The translations under genes were made by a program, and so were the position numbers. Positions 1-13,303 of a stretch of DNA of 13,303 nt are shown one piece after another. The notes beneath the pieces were generated by a model, which was not told the DNA's origin, made no database searches, and worked only from the letters and a program-made list of their open reading frames with translations. The stretch covers positions 1 to 13,303 of the IMG/VR virus record IMGVR_UViG_648276647_000015; one strand, written 5' to 3'. The stretch is from a virus (Duplodnaviria; Heunggongvirae; Uroviricota; Caudoviricetes). Numbering within the stretch: position 1 is the stretch's first letter; each line of letters begins with the position of its first letter.

Positions 1-246
1 AATGTTCTTGTTTTCGTTAAACGGTAACACCTCATTCAGCCCGGCATTTCTGAAATCAATGTGCAACTGCTCCAGTGCTGCTTCTTTATCAGCACCCGTT
101 AATTCGAGATAATCCCAGAGGCTGGCGCATAAACCACAGTTTCGCGAAAATATTCCGCCTGGATTTGCTCCGTTTTTCAGCCACAAATCATAAGTAATAT
201 AAAACCCGCAAAGCTGTTGTCTGATATTTTCTTTGATTTCTTGCAT
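1..246 (-). CDS. Hypothetical phage protein, 3-prime truncated by window edge (at least 82 aa; N-term MQEIKENIRQQLCGFYITYDLW...)
   Basis: ATG at 246..244 on minus strand, open frame of 82 codons running to position 1 with no stop; same orientation as the upstream operon. Not in the ORF track because it lacks a stop in the window. Function not recognised. Confidence 0.45.
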   Translation of the reverse strand, partial: MQEIKENIRQQLCGFYITYDLWLKNGANPGGIFSRNCGLCASLWDYLELTGADKEAALEQLHIDFRNAGLNEVLPFNENKNI

Positions 247-343
247 TATTTATTACCGCCCTTTCGGGCGGCCTCCTGATTATTTGAGGGTGCAGAAATC
301 CCTCCGGTTAAGGATTAATTTTTATGTTCTGTGCCAAATTTAA

Positions 344-763
344 TTATTCAGTTCGGGCTTTTGTCGCCCTGCGTATCCGCGCTTTCACGTTGCGCTCAAT
401 CTGAATTAGCTTTTCTATATTTTTTCGCCTTTCCCGTTCCTCCTGGCGCAATTGTTTTACATCATCTGCCAGCCAGGTTTCTCTTTTCGCCACAGAGAGC
501 ATCCAGTCAAATGGTTCCACAACCGCACCGCAGATTTTACAGCGGACCTGACGCTCTTTTTCGTCAACCCGGACAGAGGCGTGATGGCAATATGGTCTTT
601 CCGATGGCTCATAAAGAAAATTAACCTGATTACGTGGGTCATCCTCTTTTACCGGAAATAAAACAATATTACTTAACTCATCTTCTGGTTTTATTTCCAC
701 ATTACCCCCCCCTTTGATGTAAATGCCAGCAACACGCAGTACCTGATAGTCAATCCCGCTCAC
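344..763 (-). CDS. Hypothetical phage protein with Cys/His zinc-ribbon-like motif (C-H-H ... CxxC), 139 aa
   Basis: ORF 344..763; GTG start at 763..761 preceded by AAGAGG Shine-Dalgarno about 7 nt upstream; overlaps the 3-prime end of the upstream methyltransferase ORF by 14 nt (coupled). Motif PYCHHASVRVDEKERQVRCKICG. Confidence 0.55.
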   Translation of the reverse strand: MSGIDYQVLRVAGIYIKGGGNVEIKPEDELSNIVLFPVKEDDPRNQVNFLYEPSERPYCHHASVRVDEKERQVRCKICGAVVEPFDWMLSVAKRETWLADDVKQLRQEERERRKNIEKLIQIERNVKARIRRATKARTE

Positions 764-1244
764 TGGTTGCCTCTTTCACAAAAATAATCCAATGTGTTTT
801 ATCGTTCTTGCCGGTACGCTGGCTGATGATTGGTTTCGCGTCGGTTAGTGCCAATATCTGGCGAACAGGTATTTGCGTTTCATTCCATTTAAAAATCAGA
901 ACGCCGTGTGGCCACAACACACGAAAGGCTTCTTTAAATCCCTGCCGCAAATCATCACGCCAGGTATCTTTATTCAGCCGTCCATATTTCTTTCCCATCC
1001 AGGCATTATCACCAATACGCTCAAGATGCGGAGGGTCGAATACAACAACCGGAAACGATGCGTCTGCAAATGGTAATGCACGAAAATCTGCTATCAGGTC
1101 AGGGCTAATAATCAGGCGTCGTCCATCACACAATGTGTGCTCTTCCTTTCTGATATCGCTAAATATCGCCCGGTCGTCATTCTTATCGAACCAGAACATG
1201 CGACTACCACAGCACATATCAAGAATGGTTGCCGGTGCACTCAC
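750..1244 (-). CDS. Small SAM-dependent methyltransferase, amino-methyltransferase type (DPPH motif), 164 aa
   Basis: Rossmann-type motifs in canonical order: motif I ILDMCCGSRMF (aa 7-17), acidic motif II AIFSDI (about aa 26-31), motif IV VVVFDPPH (aa 66-73). GTG start at 1244..1242 with AGGAGG 7 nt upstream; start overlaps upstream stop as GTGA. Confidence 0.65.
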   Translation of the reverse strand: MSAPATILDMCCGSRMFWFDKNDDRAIFSDIRKEEHTLCDGRRLIISPDLIADFRALPFADASFPVVVFDPPHLERIGDNAWMGKKYGRLNKDTWRDDLRQGFKEAFRVLWPHGVLIFKWNETQIPVRQILALTDAKPIISQRTGKNDKTHWIIFVKEATSERD

Positions 1245-1663
1245 TGCGCTACCTCCTGAAAATTACCCTGATAGAAAGCCAGTACACGCTGCATAGCTTC
1301 GCTCTTCCGGCACTCGCGACAGATTATATTCAGGCGCCTGTCGTAGCGGCGTATTTCTCCGTCTGGTAATGACCAGATAAGGTCAGGATCAACCACAGAT
1401 GGTTTCTTCAGATTTGCCCTTGAGAGTTTTTTACGGGCGTTTTGCCAGTCCTTGCGCGCCTGTTCAGAGGGGAATAACCCGTAACCAGAGTTGTATACAT
1501 CGCCACTGGCAACCAGCTCTCTGGCAAGAACGCTCATCAGATATCTTGTCGCACCTGTCTTGGCTTCCAGTTGCCGTAACGTCTCGCGACCGCTCAGACG
1601 TACAAGTTCAACAACCTGCCCTTTAATTTTTTCCCGCTCTTCTGGTGTAAATACTTTTGCCAT
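1241..1663 (-). CDS. Hypothetical phage protein, 141 aa (MAKVFTPEEREKIKGQVVELVRL...)
   Basis: ORF track extends to 1777, but the ATG at 1663..1661 is preceded by GGAGG about 5 nt upstream and lies 14 nt after the stop of the preceding gene; N-terminal extension lacks an RBS. Function not recognised. Confidence 0.55.
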   Translation of the reverse strand: MAKVFTPEEREKIKGQVVELVRLSGRETLRQLEAKTGATRYLMSVLARELVASGDVYNSGYGLFPSEQARKDWQNARKKLSRANLKKPSVVDPDLIWSLPDGEIRRYDRRLNIICRECRKSEAMQRVLAFYQGNFQEVAQ

Positions 1664-1677
1664 AGCGCCTCCGGCAA

Positions 1678-2439
1678 TCACTTTTCCGACACAATACGAC
1701 TGGAGGAATCGACAATCAGTCGAACAATATCCCGGTGCTTGTTCAGCTCCCGCAGCGCGGCGCAGACACGCTCCCACTTCTGGACATGATTTTTCGCCCG
1801 ACGCAGTTCGCGGTTTGCCAGATGCAGCGATGGCAAAATCAAATCATCAGCTCGCGTTGCAGTAAACGATGGCAGCGACTGCACAATGTCCGCCACAGTT
1901 TCTGTTTTAATATCTTCCTGTGTTGCTGCTTCCTGTACTGGTAACGCAACACCTGCTGGCTGAGGAAAGGCTTTACCATCATTTTCCGTTACCGATGCAG
2001 CTTTCGGCTCTACTGGTAAATTATCGCCCGGTATGCAGTAACGAAATTTACCGCCCTGATTTACGCGAATCAGACGACCTTTGCTGATTGCCATTGCCAG
2101 CGTTGAAGCCACTTTGCGTGATGTGGTACCGAACAATGTAGCCAGTTCATCCGCCGTTTGTGGTCCGCGTTGTTCAATCGTCGCGGTTAAATCGCACTCT
2201 GAGATTTTCGCTACTGTTGCCGTGGTGGTTTCTTCCGGCAGTTCTGCCTGCGCTGGCTGTTCCTGCTGAACGTTGTTATCAGCCACACGCCAGGTGTACG
2301 CGCTTTTATCAACGAAACCAGCCTTTTTCAGTTCCCATAGTTCGTTCAGCACTTCTTCACGACTGATATCAAGTCGCGCAGCAAGTTCTATGGATGTGGC
2401 CTTTCCCATTGCTTTCAGTGCGTCAAAAACAGTCTCCAT
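1678..2439 (-). CDS. Hypothetical phage protein with two predicted winged-helix-like segments separated by acidic/Q-rich linkers (DUF1627-like), 254 aa
   Basis: ORF track gives 1678..2490; the ATG at 2439..2437 has a strong RBS (GGAGGA, 8-nt spacer) and does not overlap the upstream DnaC-like gene. HTH-like segments [28 protein letters not shown] and [31 protein letters not shown] assignment from memory. Confidence 0.6.
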
Positions 2440-2461
2440 TAAAATTTCCTCCCGGTAAAAA

Positions 2462-3208
2462 TCACTTCGCAATTCCTGGCTGGACGACATTCGGACGCCA
2501 GCTCTCCCAGTTAAAATTCACCCATCGCCCGCCGTTCATGGTCATGCGATCCATAATCCTCTCGCCGAGCAATGTTTTCATGGCCTCATAGTTCAGGTTT
2601 GTCAGCATCCCCACGCTGCGCATCGACGCTGTCCGGCGATCAACAATCTGGTGCAGCACCACCTGCTCGTTTTTTGTCTCGCGCTGAATGCCAATTTCAT
2701 CAAGAACCAGCAGATCCACTTCGCACAGCTCCCGCAAAAATTTTTCGCCTGACTGCCCGTCGTCATAGCTGGCGTGCAGGGCGCTCATAACATCAGCCAC
2801 GGTAACCACAATCACTGTCTGACCGTCTTTCAGCAGGCGATTCCCGATAGCTGCCGCTAAGTGATTCTTCCCGGTACCAGGTTTTCCGCTGAACGCAAAA
2901 TTTGTACACCCGGTCATCAGTTCATCGGTGATGGATTTCGCCTGGCTTAACGCGTATCGCTGGCCGTCGTTCTGCACCTGGTAATTCGCAAACGAGCATT
3001 TACGGTGCAACGGCTGGATGCCAGAGCGATTCAGAATTTTTTCCACCCGCAACTGACGATTCAGGCGGTTGATCTCCTCGCAACGTTTCTGGCCTTCAGC
3101 AAGTTGCCACTCACGCCACTCCGCAACCGTTCTGAATGGGGCGGTTACATGTGGTGGGGTCAGTCTGCGGATACGCTCCAGAACGCCGCCTGTCGCAATA
3201 TTTTTCAT
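2462..3208 (-). CDS. ydaV: DnaC-like replicative helicase loader (AAA+ ATPase), 248 aa
   Basis: Walker A-like [17 protein letters not shown] and Walker B LLVLDEIG; length and position immediately downstream of the initiator gene match Rac YdaV / phage P-type loader. ATG at 3208 with RBS; stop of upstream gene 7 nt away. Confidence 0.8.
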
Positions 3209-3214
3209 GGTCTG

Positions 3215-4003
3215 TTACCCCCTGAAGCCTGGCGGGATCGCACTGTCCGGCAACGAGACGGTGTTAACCTGTCGGAGCAACGTCTCAGGCCGAACACCTT
3301 TCGGCGCGAACAGGCCCTGGTATTCATTGGCGATACTGTGTCGAATCACCTGCTCAGGTGTAAAACCCTGCTGGCGGAATTTTTCCAGCTCCCGTATCGC
3401 CCCGTTAGCGCCCTGCTCCGTTCGAATCGGTTTTCGCAATGCCTGCCTGAACCGGACCCACTCATGCCAGAGTGTTTCCGGCAACCAATCGGGCAGCTCA
3501 ATAGCCTCCGGCTCAAATTTTTTAGACGCTCGTTTTTGGCGAGGGGGATTTAGGGGGAGATCAGTATTTATATCTTCCTCTTCCTCTTCCTCTGGTAACG
3601 CTTTTTGATCCGTTTGTGTAACGCTGCCAGCGTTACCTTTTCGTTTCAGTTCGCGTATTTTTGTAACTCGCTCGTTTGTAACCGCCCGTTTTTTAGAGCT
3701 TTTCCCGTTATGACGTTCAAAGTTAGGTAGAGAAAGCCCACCGTCATTTTCGACCAGCCATCCAACCTGAATTAACGCATCAGCAAAACCAGCCATAAAA
3801 GTGATGCGATCTATTGCACTTTTTGTAACGCCGCGAGCGTTACAATCTGCATTACCGTCTATCATTTGTTGATCCGCCCATGCCCAGAAGCGAATAACCT
3901 TCCCTAATGCGGCATCTGGATCAATATTCAGAATCTCAGCAAGCCTGAATATTTCCGGCTTATCCGGCGTAATAACCTCGAGCTTTATCCAGTTTGAAGC
4001 CAT
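3215..4003 (-). CDS. ydaU: Putative phage replication initiation protein (YdaU / DUF1376-like), 262 aa, acidic EEEEEED linker
   Basis: Position upstream of the DnaC-like loader and downstream of the cro/cII-like genes; contains repeated palindromic DNA motifs (listed separately) as origins within lambdoid initiator genes do. ATG at 4003 with AAGGTG RBS. Family assignment from memory. Confidence 0.65.
   Translation of the reverse strand: MASNWIKLEVITPDKPEIFRLAEILNIDPDAALGKVIRFWAWADQQMIDGNADCNARGVTKSAIDRITFMAGFADALIQVGWLVENDGGLSLPNFERHNGKSSKKRAVTNERVTKIRELKRKGNAGSVTQTDQKALPEEEEEEDINTDLPLNPPRQKRASKKFEPEAIELPDWLPETLWHEWVRFRQALRKPIRTEQGANGAIRELEKFRQQGFTPEQVIRHSIANEYQGLFAPKGVRPETLLRQVNTVSLPDSAIPPGFRG
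3617..3637. repeat. 21-bp palindrome TGTAACGC-TGCCA-GCGTTACc (copy 1 of 3), inside the initiator gene
   Basis: Read directly; half-site-like TGTAAC also at 3662-3667 and 3677-3682 in the same orientation. Confidence 0.8.
3824..3844. repeat. 21-bp perfect palindrome TGTAACGC-CGCGA-GCGTTACA (copy 2 of 3), inside the initiator gene
   Basis: Read directly from sequence. Confidence 0.8.
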
Positions 4004-4015
4004 TTGTTTTCACCT

Positions 4016-4036
4016 TGTAACGCTCGCAGCGTTACA
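4016..4036. repeat. 21-bp perfect palindrome TGTAACGC-TCGCA-GCGTTACA (copy 3 of 3), in the ydaT-ydaU intergenic region directly upstream of the initiator RBS
   Basis: Read directly from sequence; sits 13 bp upstream of the initiator start codon. Confidence 0.8.
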
Positions 4037-4080
4037 TTTAACTGATACCGAACAAAACAATCCGGCACGATCAATTTCAA

Positions 4081-4503
4081 TCAATGCACTACGACAGAAT
4101 CGCCGGGCGACCCACCACCGCTGAAATGTGCTTTCCGGTAAACGGCCTGGACTGCATCATCATGCGCATCAATTGCCGTACTCAACGCTTCCTGCGCCGC
4201 CAGTAATGCACGGCGCTCCAGGGTATCGAAGATGCAGAGTCGGTGACGCAGCTCGCGCGGAAGAATTGCCAGAACCGCAGGGATGAGTTTCTGAATTTTT
4301 TCCCTTTGCGCTTTCGTTTCACCTTTCAACCAACGGTGATAGATATTCTGCTGATTGTTCCAGTCCTTGCCTGGTACAAGGGGCAATTCGCCGCCCCCCT
4401 GGCGCAGATATTCTTCAGTAATTGCGTTAGCGACCCACGCCTGCCCTTTTTCGGCTGCCAGGGCTAACAACACTGATTCGATATGCTCATGCCTGATTTT
4501 CAT
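4081..4503 (-). CDS. ydaT: CII-like regulator YdaT-like protein, 140 aa
   Basis: Sequence (MKIRHEHIESVLLALAAEKGQAWVANAITEEYLRQGGGELPLVPGKDW...) and 140-aa length match my recollection of Rac YdaT; ATG overlaps the stop of the upstream Cro-like gene as ATGA; AGGAG RBS 9 nt upstream. Confidence 0.8.
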   Translation of the reverse strand: MKIRHEHIESVLLALAAEKGQAWVANAITEEYLRQGGGELPLVPGKDWNNQQNIYHRWLKGETKAQREKIQKLIPAVLAILPRELRHRLCIFDTLERRALLAAQEALSTAIDAHDDAVQAVYRKAHFSGGGSPGDSVVVH

Positions 4504-4742
4504 GAATCAACCGCTCCTATGCTGTTTTCGCTATGCTTACCGTCTGGGGGGAATACATCGTCAAGTCCACAATGAGCGCCAAGCCGATTAAGGGTAGAAA
4601 CAATTTTTCTGCACTCCTCTAGTCCAGGGGTACGAAAATTTGCTTCGTAATTTGCCAGTCGGCTTTGTATCCACCCTAACTGAACAGCAAGTTGTCTTTG
4701 AGACAGCCCAAGCTGTTTTCGATATGTTGAAATTTTGTTCAT
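4500..4742 (-). CDS. ydaS: Cro-like HTH (XRE-family) regulator, YdaS-like, 80 aa
   Basis: HTH signature QRQLAVQLGWIQSRLANYE; divergent from the repressor gene across an operator region; GGAGG RBS with 6-nt spacer; first gene of the minus-strand operon. Confidence 0.8.
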   Translation of the reverse strand: MNKISTYRKQLGLSQRQLAVQLGWIQSRLANYEANFRTPGLEECRKIVSTLNRLGAHCGLDDVFPPDGKHSENSIGAVDS

Positions 4743-4838
4743 TGAAAACCTCCGATGACAATTTTAAACACATCTTGTGTTATATGGTCAAGCTGTTTTG
4801 TGTTTTATGTAAATCACGATTCGTGATACAAGGATGCA
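4743..4838. promoter_or_regulatory. Divergent immunity control region (oR/pR-pRM-like) with two 15-bp palindromes: AACAC-ATCTT-GTGTT (4767-4781) and ATCAC-GATTC-GTGAT (4813-4827)
   Basis: Leftward promoter candidate: -35 TTGACC (plus-strand 4786-4791) and -10 TTTAAA/TAAAAT (about 4761-4766), with the first palindrome in the spacer. Second palindrome lies 12 bp upstream of the repressor ATG. Confidence 0.6.
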
Positions 4839-5258
4839 ATGGAAAAAGAAAACGAAAAAATTGCCGCTAGTAGGCTCAATGACAAAATTGCAATGCGTCT
4901 TAAAGAGCGCAGGCAGAAGCTTGGTTTATCTCAAGGAAAACTTGCTGAAATCTGCGGATGGACGCAATCGCGTATAGGTAACTATGAGGCGGGCAGCAGA
5001 AATGTTGGAGTGCATGACGCTGTCGTATTGGGAAAGGCACTTGGCATATCTCCTCCTGAGCTCCTCTTTGGAGAACAGGAATCTTCTGAATTGTGGTTAA
5101 ATGAATCCCAACGAAAACTTCTTGAGTTGTTTAACCAGCTACCGGGCTCAGAACAACAACGAATGATTGAGCTATTTGAAGTCCGGCTAAAAGAAATCGA
5201 TGAGTATGTAGAAAAATATTTGAGAGGCAGGCTTAAAGATAATCCCTCACCGGAGTAA
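4839..5258 (+). CDS. racR: Prophage repressor, RacR-like (XRE-family HTH, no S24 peptidase domain), 139 aa
   Basis: HTH signature QGKLAEICGWTQSRIGNYE in the N-terminal half; divergent to the cro-like gene; 139 aa is too short to include a LexA-type autocleavage domain. Symbol assigned by context with the YdaS/YdaT-like pair. Confidence 0.7.
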   Translation: MEKENEKIAASRLNDKIAMRLKERRQKLGLSQGKLAEICGWTQSRIGNYEAGSRNVGVHDAVVLGKALGISPPELLFGEQESSELWLNESQRKLLELFNQLPGSEQQRMIELFEVRLKEIDEYVEKYLRGRLKDNPSPE

Positions 5259-5288
5259 TGAGCTTGCTATCACAGTAATATGCCAATC

Positions 5289-5312
5289 AGCCCGCTATCA
5301 GCGGGCTTTTTT
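5289..5312 (+). terminator. Rho-independent terminator after the repressor gene
   Basis: Stem AGCCCGCT (5289-5296) / AGCGGGCT (5300-5307), 3-nt loop, followed by TTTTTT. Confidence 0.75.
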
Positions 5313-5341
5313 GTACCATCATCATATGACACTCACCACAA

Positions 5342-5384
5342 AACACATTTCGTGTTGACATAAGAAAACGCATTGTGTTTAATA
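5342..5384 (+). promoter_or_regulatory. pL-like early-left promoter with operator: AACAC-ATTTC-GTGTT (5342-5356) abutting -35 TTGACA (5355-5360), 17-bp spacer, -10 TTTAAT (5378-5383)
   Basis: Consensus -35 hexamer and 5/6 -10; the palindrome has the same 5+5+5 architecture as the one in the cro promoter spacer; an imperfect third copy AACGC-ATT-GTGTT at 5367-5379. Confidence 0.55.
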
Positions 5385-5564
5385 AGCATATCCAAACAAC
5401 GCCCCCACCAGAGAACGGCAGGACAATACCTCGAGTTATCCAGCCACTGAACAGGGCTAAGTAGCCAGCCTGAGGCATACGAACATGACGGCAGTTGTTG
5501 ATTGATACAAAGCGCAGTAGATAAAACGTTCCGCCACCCGGCGTTAAGGGGAAATGAGGTCAAC

Positions 5565-5717
5565 ATGGATACTATCGATCTTGGCAACAACGAATCTCTG
5601 GTATGTGGCGTGTTTCCCAACCAGGATGGAACGTTCACCGCCATGACTTATACCAAAAGCAAGACATTCAAAACTGAAACGGGCGCACGTCGCTGGCTTG
5701 CCAGAAATACTTGCTAA
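5565..5717 (+). CDS. Small conserved prophage protein, 50 aa (MDTIDLGNNESLVCGVFPNQDGTFTAMTYTKSKTFKTETGARRWLARNTC); possibly YdaF/YdaG-family
   Basis: ORF track entry 5502..5717 starts at a TTG; the internal ATG at 5565 has a GAGG RBS 4 nt upstream. Position between repressor and kilR matches small Rac ORFs; identity uncertain. Confidence 0.4.
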   Translation: MDTIDLGNNESLVCGVFPNQDGTFTAMTYTKSKTFKTETGARRWLARNTC

Positions 5718-5915
5718 TCCATTATTTGGATTAATTCAATATTCTCGCTGTAGGGGTATAGCAGAAACCACCAAAGCCCGGAGGTGGTGAAATAAAACCG
5801 GGCACAACACGAAGGCGCATTTCCGATATCCATAAAGAGTCGGTTTTGTCTGTTAAATTTAAATGGTGGGAGTGCGCCTCCGGTTGTAAATAACGACATT
5901 GCTGTGTGTAGTCTT

Positions 5916-5963
5916 GGCGGCATCAGTTTTTTCTTGAAGTTCGGCTGATGTCCGCCCCTTTTT
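5916..5963 (+). terminator. Terminator-like structure upstream of kilR: imperfect stem GGCGGCATCAG / CTGATGTCCGCC with 18-nt loop, followed by TTTTT
   Basis: Read from sequence; long loop and one bulge make it a weak call. Confidence 0.3.
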
Positions 5964-6128
5964 AAAGTGAATTTTGTGATGCGGTGAATGCGGCTAAGCG
6001 CACGCGGAACAGTTAAAAGCATCAGTGTTATGGGTGGATTATCCGGCGTTAATTGTTAACTGGTTAACGTCACCTGGAGGCACCAGGCACCGCATCAACA
6101 AAGTTCATTTGTAAAAATGGAGATAATT

Positions 6129-6350
6129 ATGATTGCACATCACTTCGGAACTGATGAAATACCACGTCAGTGTGTGACTCCTGGCGATTATGTTCTTCAT
6201 GAAGGCCGGACATATATTGCCTCGGCAAACAATATTAAAAAGCGAAAACTTTATATTCGTAACCTGACCACAAAAACATGCATTACTGACTGCATGATTA
6301 AAGTCTTCCTCGGTCGTGATGGTTTACCTGTAAAGGCGGAGTCATGGTGA
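6129..6350 (+). CDS. kilR: KilR-type FtsZ/cell-division inhibitor, 73 aa
   Basis: Sequence [46 protein letters not shown]... recalled as Rac KilR; ORF track starts at 6117 but ATG 6129 has GGAG 6 nt upstream and gives the expected 73 aa. Confidence 0.75.
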
Positions 6351-6520
6351 TGACTAAGAAAATAAAATGTGCTTACCACCTTTGCAATAAAGAAATTGAA
6401 GAAAGCAAAAGTATTAAAAGACCACTTCATTTCATGCGTGGAGTTATCCCAACGACGGAAATGAAAAAATATTGTAGTGAAAGTTGTGTCGAAAAAGACC
6501 AGATGGCACACGAACTTTAA
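6350..6520 (+). CDS. ydaE: YdaE-like small Cys/His-rich (zinc-binding) protein, 56 aa; absent from the ORF track
   Basis: ATG at 6350 overlaps the kilR stop (TGATG); translation [56 protein letters not shown]; position between kilR and racC as in Rac. Confidence 0.65.
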   Translation: MTKKIKCAYHLCNKEIEESKSIKRPLHFMRGVIPTTEMKKYCSESCVEKDQMAHEL

Positions 6521-6594
6521 TTAACTGACTATGCGAAACTGAATTTATGCCAGCAATGGCAGGGATTCGCTCAACCTTAATTAAGGAGAAAAAC

Positions 6595-6870
6595 ATGATT
6601 ACCAGTTATGAAGCCACTGTTGTAACTACTGATGACATTGTTCACGAGGTTAATCTGGAAGGAAAGCGTATTGGCTACGTGATTAAAACAGAAAATAAAG
6701 AAACCCCATTCACTGTGGTTGATATCGACGGTCCATCAGGCAACGTTAAAACACTTCACGAAGGTGTCAAAAAAATGTGCCTGGTGCATACCGGAAAGAA
6801 TCTGCCCGCAGAAAAAAAAGCCGAATTTCTGGCAACTCTAATTGCAATGAAATTAAAAGGTGAAATCTGA
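6595..6870 (+). CDS. racC: RacC-like protein, 91 aa
   Basis: MITSYEATVVTTDDIVHEVNLEGKRIGYVIKTENKETPF... recalled as Rac RacC; ATG 6595 has AAGGAG 7 nt upstream, whereas the ORF-track start 6547 has no RBS. Confidence 0.75.
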   Translation: MITSYEATVVTTDDIVHEVNLEGKRIGYVIKTENKETPFTVVDIDGPSGNVKTLHEGVKKMCLVHTGKNLPAEKKAEFLATLIAMKLKGEI

Positions 6871-6970
6871 AAGAAATAGCCTGCGTATGGCGCAGGCTAT
6901 GAACAGTGTGTATCCGGCAAGATCATTCACTGAACAAACGAATTTTAATCTGAGTTGAGGTTAAAAAACA

Positions 6971-8989
6971 ATGAGCACCGATAAACAAGTTTACCCACTG
7001 TATTACGAAGCAAAAAATGACAAAGTAAGAAAACGTCTCGGTATTAAGGGCGGTTTTTACTGGGCTGAAGCGAAAAAATTATCCATTGCCATCTCCCGTG
7101 GTGCTGTTGCGATTGACGATGCTGGCTACGATGAAGATGACTTCAAAAAACCTGTTCGCGTCAATTTGCCCGTTGTTGATGACCTCCCGCCAGAAGGCGT
7201 ATTTGATACGGAATTCTGCAACCGTTACGAAAAAGGCGGGGAAGATGGCATCACAATGGTATTTATCGCGCCCTCACCCTCTGCGCAGGGCAAACCAGCC
7301 AGCACTGACAACACCAATGTTAATGGCGAAGACATGACGGAGATTGAGGAGAATATGCTACTCCCGATTTCTGGCCAGGAGCTACCCATTCGCTGGCTTG
7401 CTCAACACGGCAGCGAAAAACCGGTAACGCACGTTTCACGCAACGAACTCCAGGCATTACACATTGCACGGGCTGAGGAACTACCAGCTGTTACTTCCCT
7501 GGCTGTTTCCCACAAAACCAGCCTGCTCGATCCGCTGGAAATTCGCGATCTCCACAAACTGGTGCGTGATACTGACAGAGTTTTCCCTAATCCAGGCAAT
7601 TCAAGCCTGGGGCTGATGACTGCTTTTTTCGAAGCATACATGGACGCAGACTACACCGATCGCGGTCTGCTGACAAAAGAGTGGATGAAAGGAAATCGTG
7701 TTTCACGCATCACGCGCACGGCTTCCGGCGCTAATGCTGGCGGCGGGAACCTCACCGATCGCGGCGAAGGTTTCGTTCACGATCTGACGTCACTGGCGCG
7801 CGACGTAGCCACTGGCGTACTGGCTCGTTCAATGGACGTGGACATTTATAACCTTCATCCGGCACACGCTAAACGTGTCGAGGAAATTATCGCTGAAAAT
7901 AAACCGCCCTTTTCTGTTTTCCGCGACAAATTCATCACCATGCCTGGCGGGCTGGATTATTCCCGCGCCATCGTGGTTGCGTCCGTAAAAGAAGCACCAA
8001 TTGGGATCGAGGTTATCCCCGCACACGTCACTGAATATCTGAACAAAGTACTGACTGAAACTGATCATGCCAACCCTGATCCGGAAATCGTGGATATTGC
8101 CTGCGGTCGTTCCTCTGCCCCGATGCCGCAGCGTGTAACAGAAGAAGAAAAACAGGATGATGAAGAAAAACTGCAACCATCTTGCGCAATGGCAGATGAA
8201 CAGGCAACGGCTGAAACAGTGGAACCGGATGCAACTGAACATCATCAGGACACGCAGCCGCTGGATGCTCAGTCACAGGTAAATTCGGTTGATGCGAAAT
8301 ATCTGAAACTGCGGGCAGAACTCCATGAAGCCCGGAAAAACATTCCGCCCAAAAATCCTGTCGATGCAGACAAATTACTGGCTGCCTCTCGCGGAGAATT
8401 TGTTGAAGGGATTAGCGACCCGAATGATCCGAAATGGGTTAAGGGGATCCAGACCCGCGACTCTGTGTACCAGAATCAGCCAGAAACGGAACATAACGAC
8501 CAGAAAGCGGAACAGAACGACCCAAATACGCAACAAAACGAGCCAGAAACGAAACAGCCTGAGCCAGTAGTGCAACAACAGGAAACGGAGAAAGTTTGCA
8601 CCGCCTGCGGTCAGTCTGGCGGGGATAACTGCCCTGACTGTGGTGCGGTGATGGGCGACGCAACATATCAGGAAACATTCGATGACGAGAATCAGGTTGA
8701 AGTTCGGGAAAATGAGCCGGAGAAAATGGAAGGCGCTGAACATCCACACAAGGAGAATGCTGGCAGCGATCCGCATCGCGATTGCAGTGATGAAACTGGC
8801 GAAGCAGCAGCTTCATCATTAGAAAAACTCGACTGGAAAAGACAAGTGGTGATTGCGGCGGTTTACGGTTTATGTGCGAATCCTGCAGGTATAGCCTCAG
8901 CGCCATTAATTCCGGGTATTGCAATGATGATCGCAAACAAACTTGAAAATTTTGGGGTAACAGATGATGAGCACATGCCCGATTTTTGA
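6971..8989 (+). CDS. Large protein resembling the N-terminal non-nuclease region of RecE (exonuclease VIII); no PD-(D/E)xK nuclease domain; C-terminal CxxC-x15-CxxC zinc ribbon and acidic/Q-rich segment; 672 aa
   Basis: Occupies the recE position downstream of racC; central region ([44 protein letters not shown]...) matches my recollection of RecE; ends 26 nt inside gam. Homology is recalled, not computed. Confidence 0.65.
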
Positions 8990-9263
8990 TCGCATTGAAG
9001 AGCTGGCATGGTCACGCCACTACCAGAAGATCGTTCGCGAAGAAAAAGAAACGGAACTGGCGGACGACCTGGAAAAAGGTCTGCCTCAGCACCTGTTTGA
9101 ATCGCTCTGCATCGACCATTTGCAACGCCACGGTGCCAGCAAACAGGCAATCAGTCGCGCATTTGATGACGATGTTGAATTTCAGGAACGTGTGGCGGAG
9201 CACATCCGGTACATGGTTGAAACCATTGCTCGTCACCAGGTTGATATTGATTCAGAGGTATAA
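8964..9263 (+). CDS. gam: Gam (RecBCD inhibitor), short-form length, 99 aa
   Basis: Residues from [14 protein letters not shown]...[22 protein letters not shown]...[32 protein letters not shown] are near-identical to lambda Gam as recalled; N-terminal 15 aa diverge. Confidence 0.9.
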
Positions 9264-9268
9264 AACGA

Positions 9269-10054
9269 ATGAGTACAGCACTTGCAACACTGGCCGGGAA
9301 GCTGGCTGAACGCGTCGGCATGGATTCTGTCGACCCGCAGGAACTGATCGCCACTCTTCGCCAGACGGCATTTAAAGGTAATGCCAGCGATGCGCAATTC
9401 ATCGCGCTGCTGATCGTCGCCAACCAGTACGGACTTAATCCGTGGACGAAAGAGATTTACGCCTTCCCTGATAAGCAGAACGGCATTGTTCCGGTGGTGG
9501 GCGTTGATGGCTGGTCCCGCATCATAAATGAAAACCAGCAGTTTGATGGCATGGACTTTGAGCAGGACGATGAATCATGTACATGCCGGATTTACCGCAA
9601 GGACCGTAATCATCCGATCTGCGTTACCGAGTGGATGGATGAGTGCCGTCGCGAACCATTCAAAACCCGAGAAGGCAAAGAAATCATCGGACCGTGGCAG
9701 TCGCATCCCAAACGGATGTTACGGCATAAAGCCATGATTCAGTGTGCCCGTCTGGCCTTCGGATTTGCTGGTATCTATGACAAGGATGAAGCCGAGCGCA
9801 TTGTCGAAAATACCGCACACACTGCAGAACATCAGCCGGAACGCGACATCACTCCGGTTAACGATGAAACCATGCAGGAGATTAACACTCTGCTGATCGC
9901 CCTGGATAAAACATGGGATGACGACTTATTGCCGCTCTGTTCCCAGATATTTCGCCGCGACATTCGTGCATTGTCAGAACTGAAACAGGACGAAGCAGTG
10001 AAAGCTCTTGGATTCCTGAAACAGAAAGCCGCAGAGCAGAAGGTGGCAATATGA
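9269..10054 (+). CDS. bet: Bet (Red-beta single-strand annealing protein), 261 aa
   Basis: [27 protein letters not shown]... essentially identical to lambda Bet over full length as recalled; same 261-aa length. Confidence 0.95.
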
Positions 10055-10731
10055 CATCGGACATTATCCTGCAGCGTACCGGGATCGACGTGAGAGCTAT
10101 CGTGCAGGGGGATGATGCGTGGCACAAATTACGGCTCGGCGTCATCACAGCTTCAGAAGTTCACAACGTGATAGCAAAACCCCGCTCTGGAAAGAAATGG
10201 CCTGACATGAAAATGTCCTACTTCCACACCCTGCTTGCCGAGGTTTGCACCGGTGTGGCTCCGGAAGTTAACGCTAAGGCGCTGGCCTGGGGAAAACAGT
10301 ACGAGAACGACGCCAGAACCCTGTTTGAGTTCACTTCCGGCGTGAATGTTACTGAATCCCCGATCATCTATCGCGACGAAAGTATGCGCACCGCCTGCTC
10401 TCCCGATGGTTTATGCAGTGATGGCAACGGCCTTGAGCTGAAATGCCCGTTTACCTCCCGGGATTTCATGAAGTTCCGGCTCGGTGGTTTCGAGGCCATA
10501 AAGTCGGCTTACATGGCCCAGGTGCAGTACAGCATGTGGGTGACGCGAAAAGATGCCTGGTATTTTGCCAACTATGACCCACGAATGAAGCGTGAAGGCC
10601 TGCATTATGTCGTGGTTGATCGGGATGAAAAGTACATGGCGAGTTTTGACGAGATGGTGCCAGAATTCATCGAAAAAATGGACGAGGCACTGGCTGAAAT
10701 TGGTTTTGTATTTGGGGAGCAATGGAAATGA
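10051..10731 (+). CDS. exo: Exo (Red-alpha 5-prime to 3-prime exonuclease), 226 aa
   Basis: [50 protein letters not shown]... near-identical to lambda Exo as recalled; ATG overlaps bet stop as ATGA, as in lambda. Confidence 0.95.
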
Positions 10732-10958
10732 GCGCAGCCACAAAGCTCACAGGAGAAAAACCAGTGCGATACACAAAAGTCAAACCATGCCCTTTTTGTG
10801 GTTGTCCATCAGTAACGGTGAAAGCCATTTCAGGATATTACCGCGCGAAGTGTAACGGATGCGAATCCCGAACCGGCTATGGTGGAAGTGAAAAAGAAGC
10901 ACTCGAACGATGGAATAAACGAACCACTGGAAATAATAATGGAGGTGTTCATGTATAA
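10728..10958 (+). CDS. Lar-like zinc-ribbon protein (putative restriction alleviation), 76 aa
   Basis: CPFCG ... CNGCE double CxxC motif and EALERWNKR segment resemble the Lar family; occupies the lar/ralR position after the recombinase genes. ATG 10728 overlaps the exo stop (ATGA) and has GGGGAG 8 nt upstream; ORF-track start 10722 is too close to the RBS. Confidence 0.5.
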
Positions 10959-11115
10959 AATTACCGCCACTATTGAAAAGGAAGGTGGCACTCCTACTAA
11001 CTGGACAAGGTACTCAAAAAACAAAGTTAACCAAATCGGAATGCGAAAAAATGCTCTCGGGGAAAAAAGAAGCAGGCGTTTCCAGAGAGCAGAAAGTAAA
11101 ACTGATAAATTTTAA
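10951..11115 (+). CDS. Small phage protein, 54 aa ([44 protein letters not shown]...), possibly YdaC/DUF1187-like
   Basis: ATG 10951 with GGAGG 5 nt upstream; ORF-track entry 10879..11115 is an N-terminal extension without an RBS. Identity uncertain. Confidence 0.4.
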   Translation: MYKITATIEKEGGTPTNWTRYSKNKVNQIGMRKNALGEKRSRRFQRAESKTDKF

Positions 11116-11246
11116 TTGCGAGAAACTTCTGTCCTCGTGAGTTGCATTATATCCAAATTAGAACTTCATAGCTGATTATTAAAAATCAATCACGTCCGCC
11201 AGTATTCTGTATATTTACTGGCGGTCATATCGTAAGAGGTATGGCA

Positions 11247-11528
11247 ATGAATCTTGTGACACTCAAAACGTGGGGGAAACTCAGATATCCGGATAATCCA
11301 CCATCAATATCAACGCTGAGACGATGGGCAAGGAATGGAAACATTTATCCTGCACCTGAACTACACGGGAGGAGTTACAGGGTGGTTCCGGAGGCTTTCT
11401 ATATCAACCCAAATAAGGTTGATACCGATATAACACACCATCAGCCTAATGGGCGACAAGGGAGAGACAGTCCGTTACTGGAGAAGTTAAAACATGCAGC
11501 GGAAAAAATACGATCCCAATTTGCCTAA
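11247..11528 (+). CDS. xis: Excisionase (Xis-like), about 93 aa
   Basis: Directly upstream of and overlapping int by 35 nt as in lambda; motif STLRRWARNGNIYPAPELHGRSYRVVPEA resembles excisionase/MerR-like winged helix. ATG 11247 has GAGG 7 nt upstream (ATG 11241 is 1 nt from the RBS). Confidence 0.6.
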   Translation: MNLVTLKTWGKLRYPDNPPSISTLRRWARNGNIYPAPELHGRSYRVVPEAFYINPNKVDTDITHHQPNGRQGRDSPLLEKLKHAAEKIRSQFA

Positions 11529-12570
11529 AAACTTAACATATCGAAGGAGGGACAAAGCATATTACTGGCGCAACCCTCTGACGAAAGAAGAATTTACACT
11601 AGGTAAAATTTCAAGAAGAGATGCAGTAGCGCAGGCAATTGAAGCAAATCATTATATATACAAAAACTACTCTCCTGCTGCCTTAATTGAAAAGCTTAAA
11701 GGGTTCGACTCATTTACTATGGCAGACTGGATTGAACGTTACAAAACGATTCTTATAAGGAGAAAAGTGTCCAGAAATACTTATAAAATTCGGGTAAATC
11801 AACTGGAGACAATAAAAGAAAAATTGGGAGGGATTTTACTGACAGAAATAACCACTCGCCATATTGCCGAGTTTCTTGATTTGTGGATTGAAGGAGGGAA
11901 AAACACAATGGCAGGATCAATGCGTTCTGTGTTGTCTGATATGTTTCGTGAGGCCATTGTTGAAGGACGTATATCTCAAAATCCAGTAACGCCAACAAGA
12001 GCACCGAAAATAGTAGTTACAAGAGAACGACTGAAACTAAAGACATACAACTGCATCAGGGAGGCAGCAGATCAACTTCCGGCATGGTTCCCATTAGCTA
12101 TGGATTTAGCCCTTGTAACAGGACAACGTCGCGAAGACATAACGAATATGCGGTTCAGTGATATTTATGATGATCGTCTCCACATCAGGCAAATTAAGAC
12201 AGGAATGATGATTGCTATCCCCCTGTCACTCAGCCTTCCTGTCGCTGGTCTACGGCTTGGTACAGTAGTTGAACAGTGCCGCCTGGTAAGCCGGGGAGAT
12301 TATCTAATCAGTGCCGGGATTAGAAAAAACAGCCCTGACGGCAGCATTCACCCGGATGGCCTGACAAAAAAATTTGTCGCAGCCAGAAAATTAACAGGTA
12401 TCCAGTTCAGTGAAAACCCACCAACTTTTCACGAGATCAGAAGTCTGGCTGGACGATTGTACAAAGAAACATGTGGAGAAGAATTTGCTCAGCGTCTACT
12501 TGGCCACACATCGGAGAAGACAACAAAAATGTATCTTGATGAGAGAGAAAAAACGTACTTACTGCTCTGA
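11494..12570 (+). CDS. int: Tyrosine site-specific integrase, lambda Int family, 358 aa
   Basis: Alignable to lambda Int as recalled, with conserved catalytic region ...[14 protein letters not shown]...[17 protein letters not shown] (R, H-x-x-R, H, Y); last phage gene before the host junction. Confidence 0.9.
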
Positions 12571-12617
12571 TTTTAACGTAAATGGATTGTTAAATGTATT
12601 TTGGTTGTGATATAACC

Positions 12618-12640
12618 AAAAAAGACCGGAATACAGAAAT
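12618..12640. repeat. Partial second copy of the sdsR 3-prime terminus (att-core-like): aaaaaagaccggaatacag vs aaaaaaagaccgaatacg at 12702-12719
   Basis: Direct repeat read from sequence; reverse complement GTATTCCGGTCTTTTTT matches the last 17 nt of sdsR with one inserted base. Confidence 0.6.
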
Positions 12641-12647
12641 TCGAGTA

Positions 12648-12667
12648 AATTTCGGGGAATTTCGGGG
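12648..12667. repeat. Perfect tandem direct repeat aatttcgggg x2
   Basis: Read directly; lies between the two sdsR 3-prime-end copies. Confidence 0.7.
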
Positions 12668-12701
12668 AGACGTTTGCAACTGATTGATTTTAAATACAAT
12701 T

Positions 12702-12804
12702 AAAAAAAGACCGAATACGATTCCTGTATTCGGTCCAGGGAAATGGCTCTTGGGAGAGAGCCGTGCGCTAAAAGTTGGCATTAATGCAGGCTTAGTTGCC
12801 TTGC
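12702..12804 (-). ncRNA. sdsR: SdsR (RyeB) small RNA, about 103 nt
   Basis: Reverse complement of 12702-12804 reads GCAAGGCAACTAAGCCTGCATTAATGCCAACTTTTAGCGCACGGCTCTCTCCCAAGAGCCATTTCCCTGGACCGAATACAGGAATCGTATTCGGTCTTTTTTT, matching my recollection of E. coli SdsR, including the terminator hairpin (10-bp arms, 7-nt loop) and U-run. A CTATTCT -10-like element sits just upstream. Confidence 0.7.
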
Positions 12805-12891
12805 TCTTTAAGAATAGATGACGACGCCAGGTTTTCCAGTTTGCGTGCAAAATGGTCAATAAAAAGCGTGGTGGTCATCAGCTTAAATATT

Positions 12892-12932
12892 AAAAACCGC
12901 CCGTTCTGGTGAAAGAACTGAGGCGGTTTTTT
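12892..12932. terminator. Bidirectional rho-independent terminator between the sRNA locus and yebY
   Basis: Arms AAAAACCGCC (12892-12901) / GGCGGTTTTT (12922-12931) with internal GTTCT/AGAAC pairing; U-runs on both strands. Confidence 0.7.
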
Positions 12933-12961
12933 ATTGGAAATCAAAAGGCTATTTTAGGTAA

Positions 12962-13303
12962 TTAACAGAGTTTTTCAGCTCGCTCTATAAACGGTGCCAG
13001 ACTCATTTTTTCGCCGGGATTGTTAGGATCATCAATCTGAATCACCGAAATGGGTTGGGTTTTAGTCTTCCCACTGGCAACTTCCTTTTGTGCGATATCG
13101 TTTAAAGGATACTGCACGAGGGTACTTGGGTTAATGACATACAAAGCATTACCCGGTCGGCAAGTCAGCATCACCTCTTCGCGATTAAACGCCCATTTGT
13201 CTTTACCCACTTCAAAACGGCTGACGGTAATCACCTGCGGTGCCGCCAGCGCAGCTGCAGAACTGGTGAGTAACAGAAACGCCAGAATACTTTTTTTCAT
13301 CAT
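12962..13303 (-). CDS. yebY: Small secreted protein YebY-like (DUF2511), 113 aa with N-terminal signal peptide
   Basis: Complete ORF ending at the window edge; [20 protein letters not shown] signal sequence; recalled as host YebY, which neighbours the sdsR/ryeA locus. Confidence 0.65.

Follow-up and report, generated by a model that had tools for sequence, protein, structure and literature searches.

How does a phage enter the 3′ end of a bacterial small RNA (sRNA) gene and leave that gene intact, and what is a second copy of the last nucleotides of the gene doing a short distance away? These questions are raised by a stretch of viral DNA of 13,303 nucleotides (nts), positions 1 to 13,303 of IMG/VR record IMGVR_UViG_648276647_000015, referred to here at its full length as the window. 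Near its right end, an integrase gene (int) is followed by the sRNA gene sdsR, also named ryeB, which is overlapped on the opposite strand by ryeA (sraC). The original prediction, made from the sequence without database searches, proposed that a prophage had integrated into the sRNA 3′ end with the gene rebuilt by the phage attachment (att) core, and offered three explanations for the extra copy: the true phage–host junction, an arm element of the phage attachment site (attP), or a remnant of an earlier integration. The window is very probably the integrase-proximal junction of a lambdoid prophage with a Rac-like early region, which entered by recombination between attP and the sdsR terminator hairpin that serves as the bacterial site (attB). 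The second copy, as sequence comparison leads us to conclude, is a conserved and selectively maintained module of the attP arm and no junction.

The junction between prophage and host DNA

The following features frame the junction:

11494-12570, plus strand: int, assigned from its open reading frame (ORF), its Pfam domains, and its identity to the integrases (Int) of phages pPE4 and HK022
12571-12701, no strand: attP arm on the int side, topologically equivalent to the lambda P′ arm and entirely phage DNA; absent from empty sites and contiguous with int in pPE4
12702-12731, no strand: region shared by attP and attB that holds the crossover, from the alignment of attB, attP, and both junctions and from an inverted repeat
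12702-12804, minus strand: intact sdsR (ryeB), from Rfam and its terminator; the last 15-26 nts come from phage DNA

The 358-residue ORF at 11494-12570 reads toward the junction and stops at 12570, where the integrase had been predicted to end. It encodes a lambda-type tyrosine integrase with the Pfam domains Arm-DNA-bind_1 (PF09003; 28 bits against a cut-off of 22), Phage_int_M (PF22022), and Phage_integrase (PF00589), and is 98% identical to the integrase of the circular phage vB_Apl-pPE4 (pPE4) and ~41% identical to HK022 Int. A gap of 131 bp separates its stop codon from the SdsR 3′ end at 12702. The Rfam family SdsR_RyeB (RF00111) matches 12702-12801 on the minus strand, scoring 118.1 bits where 38 is the gathering threshold and covering model positions 1-100 of 100; the published SdsR 5′ end lies ~3 nts upstream of the model start, in agreement with a gene spanning 12702-12804. 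Its intrinsic terminator, the sole one found on the minus strand by a simple scan, consists of an 11-pair stem (12736-12708) with a 7-nt loop followed by UUUUUUU, and faces the integrase gene. The intact sRNA with a terminator directed into the prophage, as originally described, is thus borne out.

To place the junction, a three-way comparison was made between the empty site of E. coli W and K-12, the attP of circular pPE4, and the far prophage end in C25, a closely related lysogen whose prophage is ~42 kb long. In addition, a 1-kb query across the junction was searched against 5426 complete E. coli genomes. All 5426 match from window 12701 rightward, whereas the integrase side is matched as well in only 228, such that ~4% of complete E. 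coli genomes hold this integrase type at the sdsR site. The pphA-sdsR-yebY region of E. coli W is contiguous, that is, empty, in 5191 of the 5426 genomes and split in the remaining 235. With host homology beginning at 12701 and 5191 empty sites running on without interruption, 12571-12700 does not belong to the host, and prophage-free strains lack it altogether. Both findings that the original prediction had named as counting against it turned out the other way: no uninterrupted host sequence with both copies and the DNA between them was seen in prophage-free strains, and 12702-12804 is SdsR at 118 bits.

The empty site reads ...acagATAAAAAGAGACCGAACACGATTCCTGTATTCGGTCC in E. coli W, and the same in K-12 DH5alpha; the attP of pPE4 reads ...caattAAAAAAAGACCGAATACGATTCCTGTTTTCGTCAAC. 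In pPE4, int and the same arm are followed by ...caattAAAAAAAGACCGAATACGATTCCTGTTTTCGTCAACAAAC, which continues into tail-fibre genes. The pPE4 record (GenBank PP818812) is circularly permuted, with window 248-11493 corresponding to record positions 11420-1 and window 11494-12732 to 47508-46270; its order of int, arm, core, and tail-fibre genes is therefore that of a true attP. Over the common region 12702-12731, 28 of 31 positions are identical between attP and attB, and the three that differ, seen by setting the empty-site sequence ...ggcttttaacagATAAAAAGAGACCGAACACGATTCCTGTATTCGGTCCAGG against the pPE4-type attP sequence ...AAAAAAAGACCGAATACGATTCCTGTTTTCGTC, narrow the crossover to 11 bp. 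In the window, 12707 (A, not G) and 12716 (T, not C) agree with the phage, and 12728 (A, not T) with the host. The far junction of C25, which lies beside pphA and reads ...ggcttttaacagATAAAAAGAGAACCGAACACGATTCCTGTTTTCGTCAACAAAC, shows the opposite arrangement, with host alleles to the left and phage alleles to the right. The allele pattern of window, attB, attP, and far junction therefore places strand exchange inside 12717-12727 (ACGATTCCTGT). The IMG/VR loci give the same crossover interval. On the int side, 50 distinct junctions of this arm type carry phage alleles to its left and the host allele and sdsR to its right; on the far side, five junctions with an E. coli left flank have the order reversed. 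The two checks suggested with the original prediction, comparison with the empty pphA-yebY region and recovery of the other prophage end with its copy of the core, thus both yielded an answer, the latter in the relative C25.

What lies at the point of exchange is a hairpin. The crossover interval spans the 7-nt terminator loop GATTCCT (12719-12725), which is flanked by a perfect 10-bp inverted repeat at 12709-12718 and 12726-12735 (GACCGAATAC and GTATTCGGTC). In lambda and HK022, the attP core is organized as C-O-C′ with a 7-bp overlap, and a P′ arm carrying H′ and the sites P′1-P′3 lies beside the int 3′ end. By analogy, the two stem arms of the sdsR terminator would be the inverted core-type sites and the loop the 7-bp overlap. 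With the junction placed to 11 bp in the terminator loop, the locus is a clean case in which one hairpin serves both as RNA terminator and as recombinase core.

Because attP holds a near-copy of the last ~30 bp of the sRNA, SdsR is rebuilt with two base changes only. Relative to the empty-site allele, a G·U pair in the stem becomes A-U and the tail changes from UCUCUUUUU to UCUUUUUUU, giving U7 in place of UCUUUUU. The predicted fold is unchanged, with a hairpin energy of -15.8 kcal/mol for both alleles. To judge from these alignments, the SdsR gene is regenerated by the phage att core, just as had been proposed. A stronger terminator stem in the lysogen was considered and rejected; the two hairpin energies are the same, and the U-tract alone differs.

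Two of the reference sequences have peculiarities of their own. At the C25 far junction (locus L004, ~21795-21815, minus strand), the half of the core on the host side is longer by one A (GAGAACCGAACAC, as against GAGACCGAACAC in E. coli W). Strain polymorphism, sequencing error, or a footprint of recombination could account for it. The 47.5-kb pPE4 record (PP818812.1) is labelled a phage of Actinobacillus pleuropneumoniae. Across the early region and int, it shares 93-98% identity with the window prophage, and in its attP it matches the sdsR terminator of enterobacteria. The Actinobacillus label looks doubtful, and pPE4 may be an induced E. coli prophage.

The attP arm and the second copy of the sdsR end

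Between the int stop codon and the core, the arm holds five distinct elements:

12586-12593, plus strand: arm block ATTGTTAA, mean pairwise identity 0.74 across 21 arms
12606-12616, plus strand: arm block TGTGATATAAC, mean pairwise identity 0.92 across 21 arms, the highest of all blocks
12618-12634, plus strand: second copy AAAAAAGACCGGAATAC, a half-site that resembles the core and borders the arm repeats on their distal side, from shuffles, conservation, and attP-form records
12635-12667, plus strand: three putative arm-type repeats in tandem, AGAAATTCGAGT, AAATTTCGGGG, and AATTTCGGGG, with a period of 10-11, from sequence and conservation
12677-12689, minus strand: AATCAATCAGTTG, an exact match to the consensus of integration host factor (IHF), WATCAANNNNTTR, between the arm repeats and the core

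The second copy matches the last 17 nts of the sRNA (12702-12718) at 16 of 17 positions and contains one inserted G (12629). It had been described as a duplicate of 17 nts at 12618-12640; the copy is real over 12618-12634, and 12635-12640 has no same-strand similarity to the sRNA end. The start-to-start spacing of the two copies is 84-85 bp, close to the 83 bp first given. Across the window, AAAAAGACCG(N)AATAC has two occurrences and no more, at 12619-12634 and 12704-12718; 200 dinucleotide-preserving shuffles contain none.

The arm in which the copy resides is a string of conserved blocks separated by variable spacers. Among 21 aligned nonredundant int-proximal arms, scored by mean pairwise identity, the second-copy block (A)nGACCG(G)AATAC reaches 0.72, with C.G.AATA near-invariant. 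The three tandem (A/T)ATTTCG repeats reach 0.64-0.74, and the IHF-consensus block 0.69, with TAA....TTGA near-invariant. Spacers between blocks fall to 0.31-0.47, and the neighbors of ATTGTTAA and TGTGATATAAC to 0.44-0.47. From the core outward, the arm would thus be organized as an IHF site, three arm-type repeats, the second copy, two more conserved blocks, and the int stop codon. The (A/T)ATTTCG repeats are kept in all arm lineages, similar repeats occur on the other arm in pPE4 and C25, and the repeats share TTCG with the core half-sites. Their flavor varies by lineage (CGGGG, CGAG, CGGAC, or CGTG), while the second copy stays core-like and, in many diverged arms, lies at a constant 85-89 bp from the core.

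The copy is also part of phage genomes in their attP form. It is present in three such records: pPE4, Salmonella phage ZC-S1_prp, and the circular Flyfo siphovirus Tbat2_3, in which the integrase is 50% identical to that of the window and the copy abuts the int stop codon (atgattTAGACCGAATAT). Beside integrases of the subfamily that ends in GAEYVMV*, the copy has a degenerate CCG part (TAGAAAGAATAT). Its presence inside packaged or circular phage genomes, together with its absence from the 5191 empty-site genomes, means that the second copy is not the junction, which disposes of one of the three options first listed. The option of an attP arm element is the one that conservation across the 21 arms and the three attP-form records uphold. 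The remnant of an earlier integration fails as far as host DNA is concerned, the copy being absent from those same empty sites; an ancient origin within the phage lineage may nevertheless underlie it.

Several other accounts of the copy have to be weighed against a maintained arm module. Short two-copy repeats are common in A/T-rich intergenic DNA such as this, so a chance match might be suspected; it is extremely improbable, given two occurrences against none in the 200 shuffles and the recurrence of the same element at the same position in dozens of independent arms. Hardly more credible is a real phage–host junction, or a host-DNA scar of an earlier integration, which would make 12641-12701 host DNA or part of an older element. 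The copy does reproduce the A-run and the left stem arm of the sRNA terminus, as a duplicated att core would. However, it lies with all of 12571-12700 between int and core in circular pPE4 and is found in two other attP-form records, and the stretch is missing from every contiguous-site E. coli genome (read directly in E. coli W and K-12), host homology beginning at 12701 throughout. A nonfunctional fossil deserves more consideration: a 3′ piece of sdsR could have been taken up by an ancestral phage, through aberrant excision or tandem integration, and inherited since. Such an origin would agree with a similarity that takes in the A-run, for which a core-type half-site has no need, with the 1-nt insertion in the window lineage's copy, and with the degenerate CCG part beside GAEYVMV* integrases. 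We nonetheless regard it as unlikely, since the distance to the core is fixed, the copy is as conserved as the arm repeats and the IHF-like block while the spacers have diverged, and it is kept beside integrases only ~50% identical to the window's, such as that of Tbat2_3.

The copy might, on the other hand, act as RNA. Blocks 12586-12616 could be taken for a promoter directed toward the core, with TTGTTA as a -35-like element, TGaTATAAC as an extended -10-like element, and 18 nts between the two. A RyeA-like transcript would start from it at ~12622-12624, with the second copy at the 5′ end of the RNA. Through this transcript, the SdsR 3′ end would gain a second site to pair with, or 12726-12735 another partner. 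The most conserved block of the arm, TGTGATATAAC, is indeed the one that supplies the extended -10, at 18 nts from TTGTTA; the validated K-12 ryeA -10 (TGtTATGGT) occupies an analogous place in the integrase 3′-end relic described below; and PhiW104 lysogens of Salmonella still make a 5′-modified RyeA (PMC7380047). Yet the putative -10 ends in C and lacks the highly conserved T, which is why the promoter scan of the window did not flag TTGTTA-18-TGaTATAAC, and minus-strand hairpins at the second copy are of low stability (-2 to -7 kcal/mol) and lack consistency. A function at the RNA level is distinctly unlikely on this showing. A back-up terminator or RNA hairpin at the copy on the SdsR strand was likewise rejected: its minimum free energy of -2 to -7 kcal/mol is inconsistent between lineages, and the structure is unformed in the window lineage.

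Within the conserved arm module, then, what might the second copy do? The chances are roughly even that it is a protein-binding site, either an additional Int site, core-like or inverted arm-like, or a site for an accessory factor. An inverted arm-type site and a core-type half-site were tried as distinct candidates and proved inseparable, as both classes share (A/T)ATTCG in this family. Some considerations weigh against the account given here of the junction and its arm. The crossover interval is drawn from relatives, C25 and the IMG/VR loci, the window's own far junction lying beyond its ends, and it assumes that the window's host had C, the common allele, at 12716. When arms joined to another core were sought with the arm motif, as a basis for scoring covariation between second copy and core, 84 distinct arms were returned, of which 78 have the exact core and six a single-base variant, and none a different core; essentially the same core adjoins every arm found. 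The one-base insertion in the window lineage's copy might impair recognition as a core-type site. Repeat flavor does not covary with the Int N-domain, whose identity is 0.66 within a flavor and 0.61 between flavors, the same ratio as in the rest of the protein; the name arm-type site accordingly comes from the shared TTTCG core and the analogy to lambda. The roles suggested for the arm modules are read from sequence.

The attP of Tbat2_3 itself (OL617042; locus L213, 1765-1880) departs from that of the window: its left half-site is the same (AAAGACCGAATAC), its overlap is CAATCCT, not GATTCCT, and its right half is different. The variant overlap may reflect a host with a different sdsR loop or a shifted specificity.

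RyeA and the integrase relic at the empty site

SdsR regulates porins, mutS, and tolC, and has been termed a toxin with RyeA as its antagonist. Given these roles, strains with and without the prophage differ at a consequential place, the RyeA promoter and leader. The relevant features on the host side and at the border are these:

12698-12935, plus strand: body of ryeA (sraC) and its terminator (12889-12934), from Rfam RF00101 and an inverted repeat
12811-12816, minus strand: sdsR -10 (TATTCT on the minus strand), untouched host DNA; primer PM_SdsRF in PMC6610125 replaces AGAATA, and the same sequence stands in the window
12673-12700, plus strand: sigma-70-like TTTGCA-16-TACAAT directed toward ryeA, a weak candidate for a replacement promoter with 9/12 consensus matches

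The Rfam family SraC_RyeA (RF00101) matches 12698-12842 on the plus strand with 180 bits against 37, and its 145-nt model is matched in full. K-12 RyeA is longer, at 261-272 nts (PMC6610125), and is abolished when its -10 is changed to CTCGAG (Choi 2019, PMC6610125). The primers of that study, TGTGTGT-CTCGAG-TGACTATAAAG, identify the ryeA -10 as TATGGT, at 1451-1456 of the E. coli W/K-12 empty-site locus (L001). This native -10 and the first 55-65 nts of K-12 RyeA lie to the left of the crossover and are absent from the window, where the phage arm replaces them; in lysogen C25, the displaced promoter DNA is found at the far prophage end. Integration would thus shift the native ryeA promoter and 55-65 nts of 5′ sequence to the far end of the prophage, ~42 kb away. 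The prophage would also cut the unit of sdsR-pphA read-through transcription, which is modulated by ryeA transcription (PMC6610125). Effects on the expression of RyeA, SdsR, and pphA may follow. Lysogens and nonlysogens would then differ in the RyeA promoter and leader and in sdsR-pphA coupling, a hidden strain variation in a stress regulon.

A promoter scan found two sigma-70-like sites, against 1.2 ± 1.3 expected by chance. TTTGCA-16-TACAAT was considered as the ryeA replacement promoter and set aside as a weak candidate: it is no better than chance in A/T-rich DNA, and its position is not conserved across arms.

The DNA that the phage arm displaces appears to have a phage history of its own. 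Empty E. coli has 135 bp between pphA and sdsR, and this spacer can be aligned to the final ~20 codons of intact integrases ending in ...KKYLDARGAEYVMV*, a subfamily that adjoins the same core in IMG/VR. A profile (nhmmer) of 20 such integrase 3′ ends, searched against 38 kb of E. coli host DNA, has its best match at L001 1391-1457 (E = 0.0016), and pairwise blastn gives E = 1.8e-4. The relic, of the ..YLDARGAEYVMV* type, is on the same strand as in intact phages and ends at the stop position expected relative to the core. Its best-conserved piece, TGTTATGGTT, which corresponds to the V-M-V codons, holds the validated ryeA -10 TATGGT with an extended-10 TG before it. PphA, encoded next to the relic (L001 711-1367, minus strand), is 48-50% identical to the NinI Ser/Thr phosphatases of lambdoid phages such as 434 and HK225, and pphA is oriented as a gene of the pR operon would be in a prophage with int facing the core and sdsR. 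The integrase relic and, next to it, a NinI-like pphA suggest that the reference attB is what remains of an older lambdoid prophage, with the ryeA promoter lying within an integrase fossil. That picture fits the poor conservation of SraC relative to SdsR (PMC3333887) and the 2008 claim that the site is used repeatedly.

One may go a step further, tentatively and with more doubt than confidence, and suggest that the RyeA promoter and leader are supplied by successive phage arms, the conserved blocks of the present arm, second copy included, being one such replacement. The RyeA/SraC 5′ end would then not be a stable host gene but whatever phage arm currently abuts sdsR. The present phage would swap the integrase fossil for its own arm, with TTGTTA-18-TGaTATAAC as the replacement promoter and the second copy at the predicted start of the leader. 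If this is true, a phage-supplied leader on the antisense "antitoxin" RNA would shift the balance between SdsR and RyeA and break the coupling of sdsR to pphA. In a small way, both the conserved core-like arm element and the fossil integrase beneath the ryeA promoter of K-12 add to what is known of the function and evolution of this hot spot.

Beyond the ryeA body, window 12889-12934 contains a 13-bp inverted repeat between ryeA and yebY, flanked on each side by an A-run and a T-run, and looks like a bidirectional terminator for both convergent transcripts.

Related systems and neighboring genes

The original prediction named this locus as an insertion hot spot in Salmonella, and rightly so: Balbontin, Figueroa-Bossi, Casadesus & Bossi (J Bacteriol 2008), as summarised in PMC7380047, describe ryeA/ryeB as a hot spot used repeatedly by different elements. 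The same summary relates that PhiW104 of Salmonella DT104 uses the last 23 bp of ryeB, internal to ryeA, and that in its lysogens the 5′ part of ryeA is modified, ryeA is lowered, and ryeB is raised. The window is the E. coli counterpart of the Salmonella hot spot, and integration of this kind was already known. As at the hot spot, attP and attB share the 3′-terminal ~23 bp of sdsR and the junction falls inside the terminator, the sRNA is intact after integration, and phage DNA takes the place of the 5′ part of ryeA; so far as sequence can speak to them, all defining features of the class are present. Unlike PhiW104, the phage of the window resides in E. coli/Shigella and has a Rac-like early region (recET, ralR/RalA, and kilR). 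In island catalogues, "RyeB" already serves as the target label of a Citrobacter prophage (Cfr111.52.RyeB).

Measured against lambda and HK022, the window Int has the same arm-binding, central, and catalytic domains and is accompanied by a lambda-family excisionase (Xis). The arm resembles lambda P′ in having an IHF-consensus site followed by three tandem direct repeats beside the int 3′ end, and the core in being an inverted repeat around 7 nts. The differences are equally plain. The window core is an RNA terminator hairpin, as opposed to the gal-bio spacer in lambda, and between the third repeat and the int stop codon lies ~65 bp of additional conserved arm DNA, including the core-like half-site, of which we know of no counterpart in the lambda P′ arm. 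Finally, whereas the arm-type and core-type sites of lambda are unrelated, the corresponding sites in the window share the TTCG motif.

Integration at the 3′ ends of tRNA, tmRNA, and small-RNA genes is a familiar strategy of phages and islands, exemplified by P4, P22, and the ssrA-targeting phages. An ffs-targeting integration in Enterococcus belongs here as well (PMC12540744). Like these integrators, the phage of the window carries the 3′ end of a structured-RNA gene in attP, regenerates the gene, and employs a symmetric stem-loop as core. Unlike them, it enters a bidirectional locus, such that rebuilding SdsR would truncate and re-promote the antisense RyeA and uncouple pphA. The Rac prophage of E. 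coli K-12 occupies ttcA. Its early region (recE, recT, ralR/RalA, kilR, and ydaT/U/V-like genes) resembles that of the window, while the int-xis-att module differs, the integrase and attP of the window targeting sdsR.

To gauge how widely the core is used, an exact-core scan of IMG/VR, which returned at least 120 contigs, took the place of an Int-protein search as the measure of diversity; a search of genome contigs with the single Int protein had yielded only two near-identical loci. Among the contigs listed, core-adjacent integrases are 40-98% identical to that of the window, and at least one is unrelated. A different left-flank family (...ggcggcacagagtccagcagagtagaac... aaccaaaaaaaGACCG...) stands at the same core in IMG/VR loci L038, L047, L048, and L065, and the core-adjacent ORF of L047 has no blastp match to the window Int at E ≤ 1e-3. 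At least one further recombinase lineage may use the sdsR core.

Two more genes complete the surroundings of the junction:

11241-11528, plus strand: xis, a lambda-type excisionase, from its ORF and Pfam PF07825 Exc (E = 6.5e-14); labelled excisionase in strain C25 and overlapping the start of int
12962-13303, minus strand: yebY, the host flank, from its ORF and Pfam DUF2511; labelled yebY in all matching genomes

The early region of the window matches Rac-type phages at ~93-94%, with recE, recT, ralR/RalA, kilR, and ydaT/U/V-like genes. It includes the RalA antitoxin sRNA at full length (10957-11136, minus strand; Rfam RF02694, 212 bits), opposite which lies a ralR-like toxin ORF, with ORFs around 10879-11115 on the plus strand. 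A Rac-type RalR/RalA type I toxin–antitoxin pair of the prophage thus sits just upstream of xis-int.

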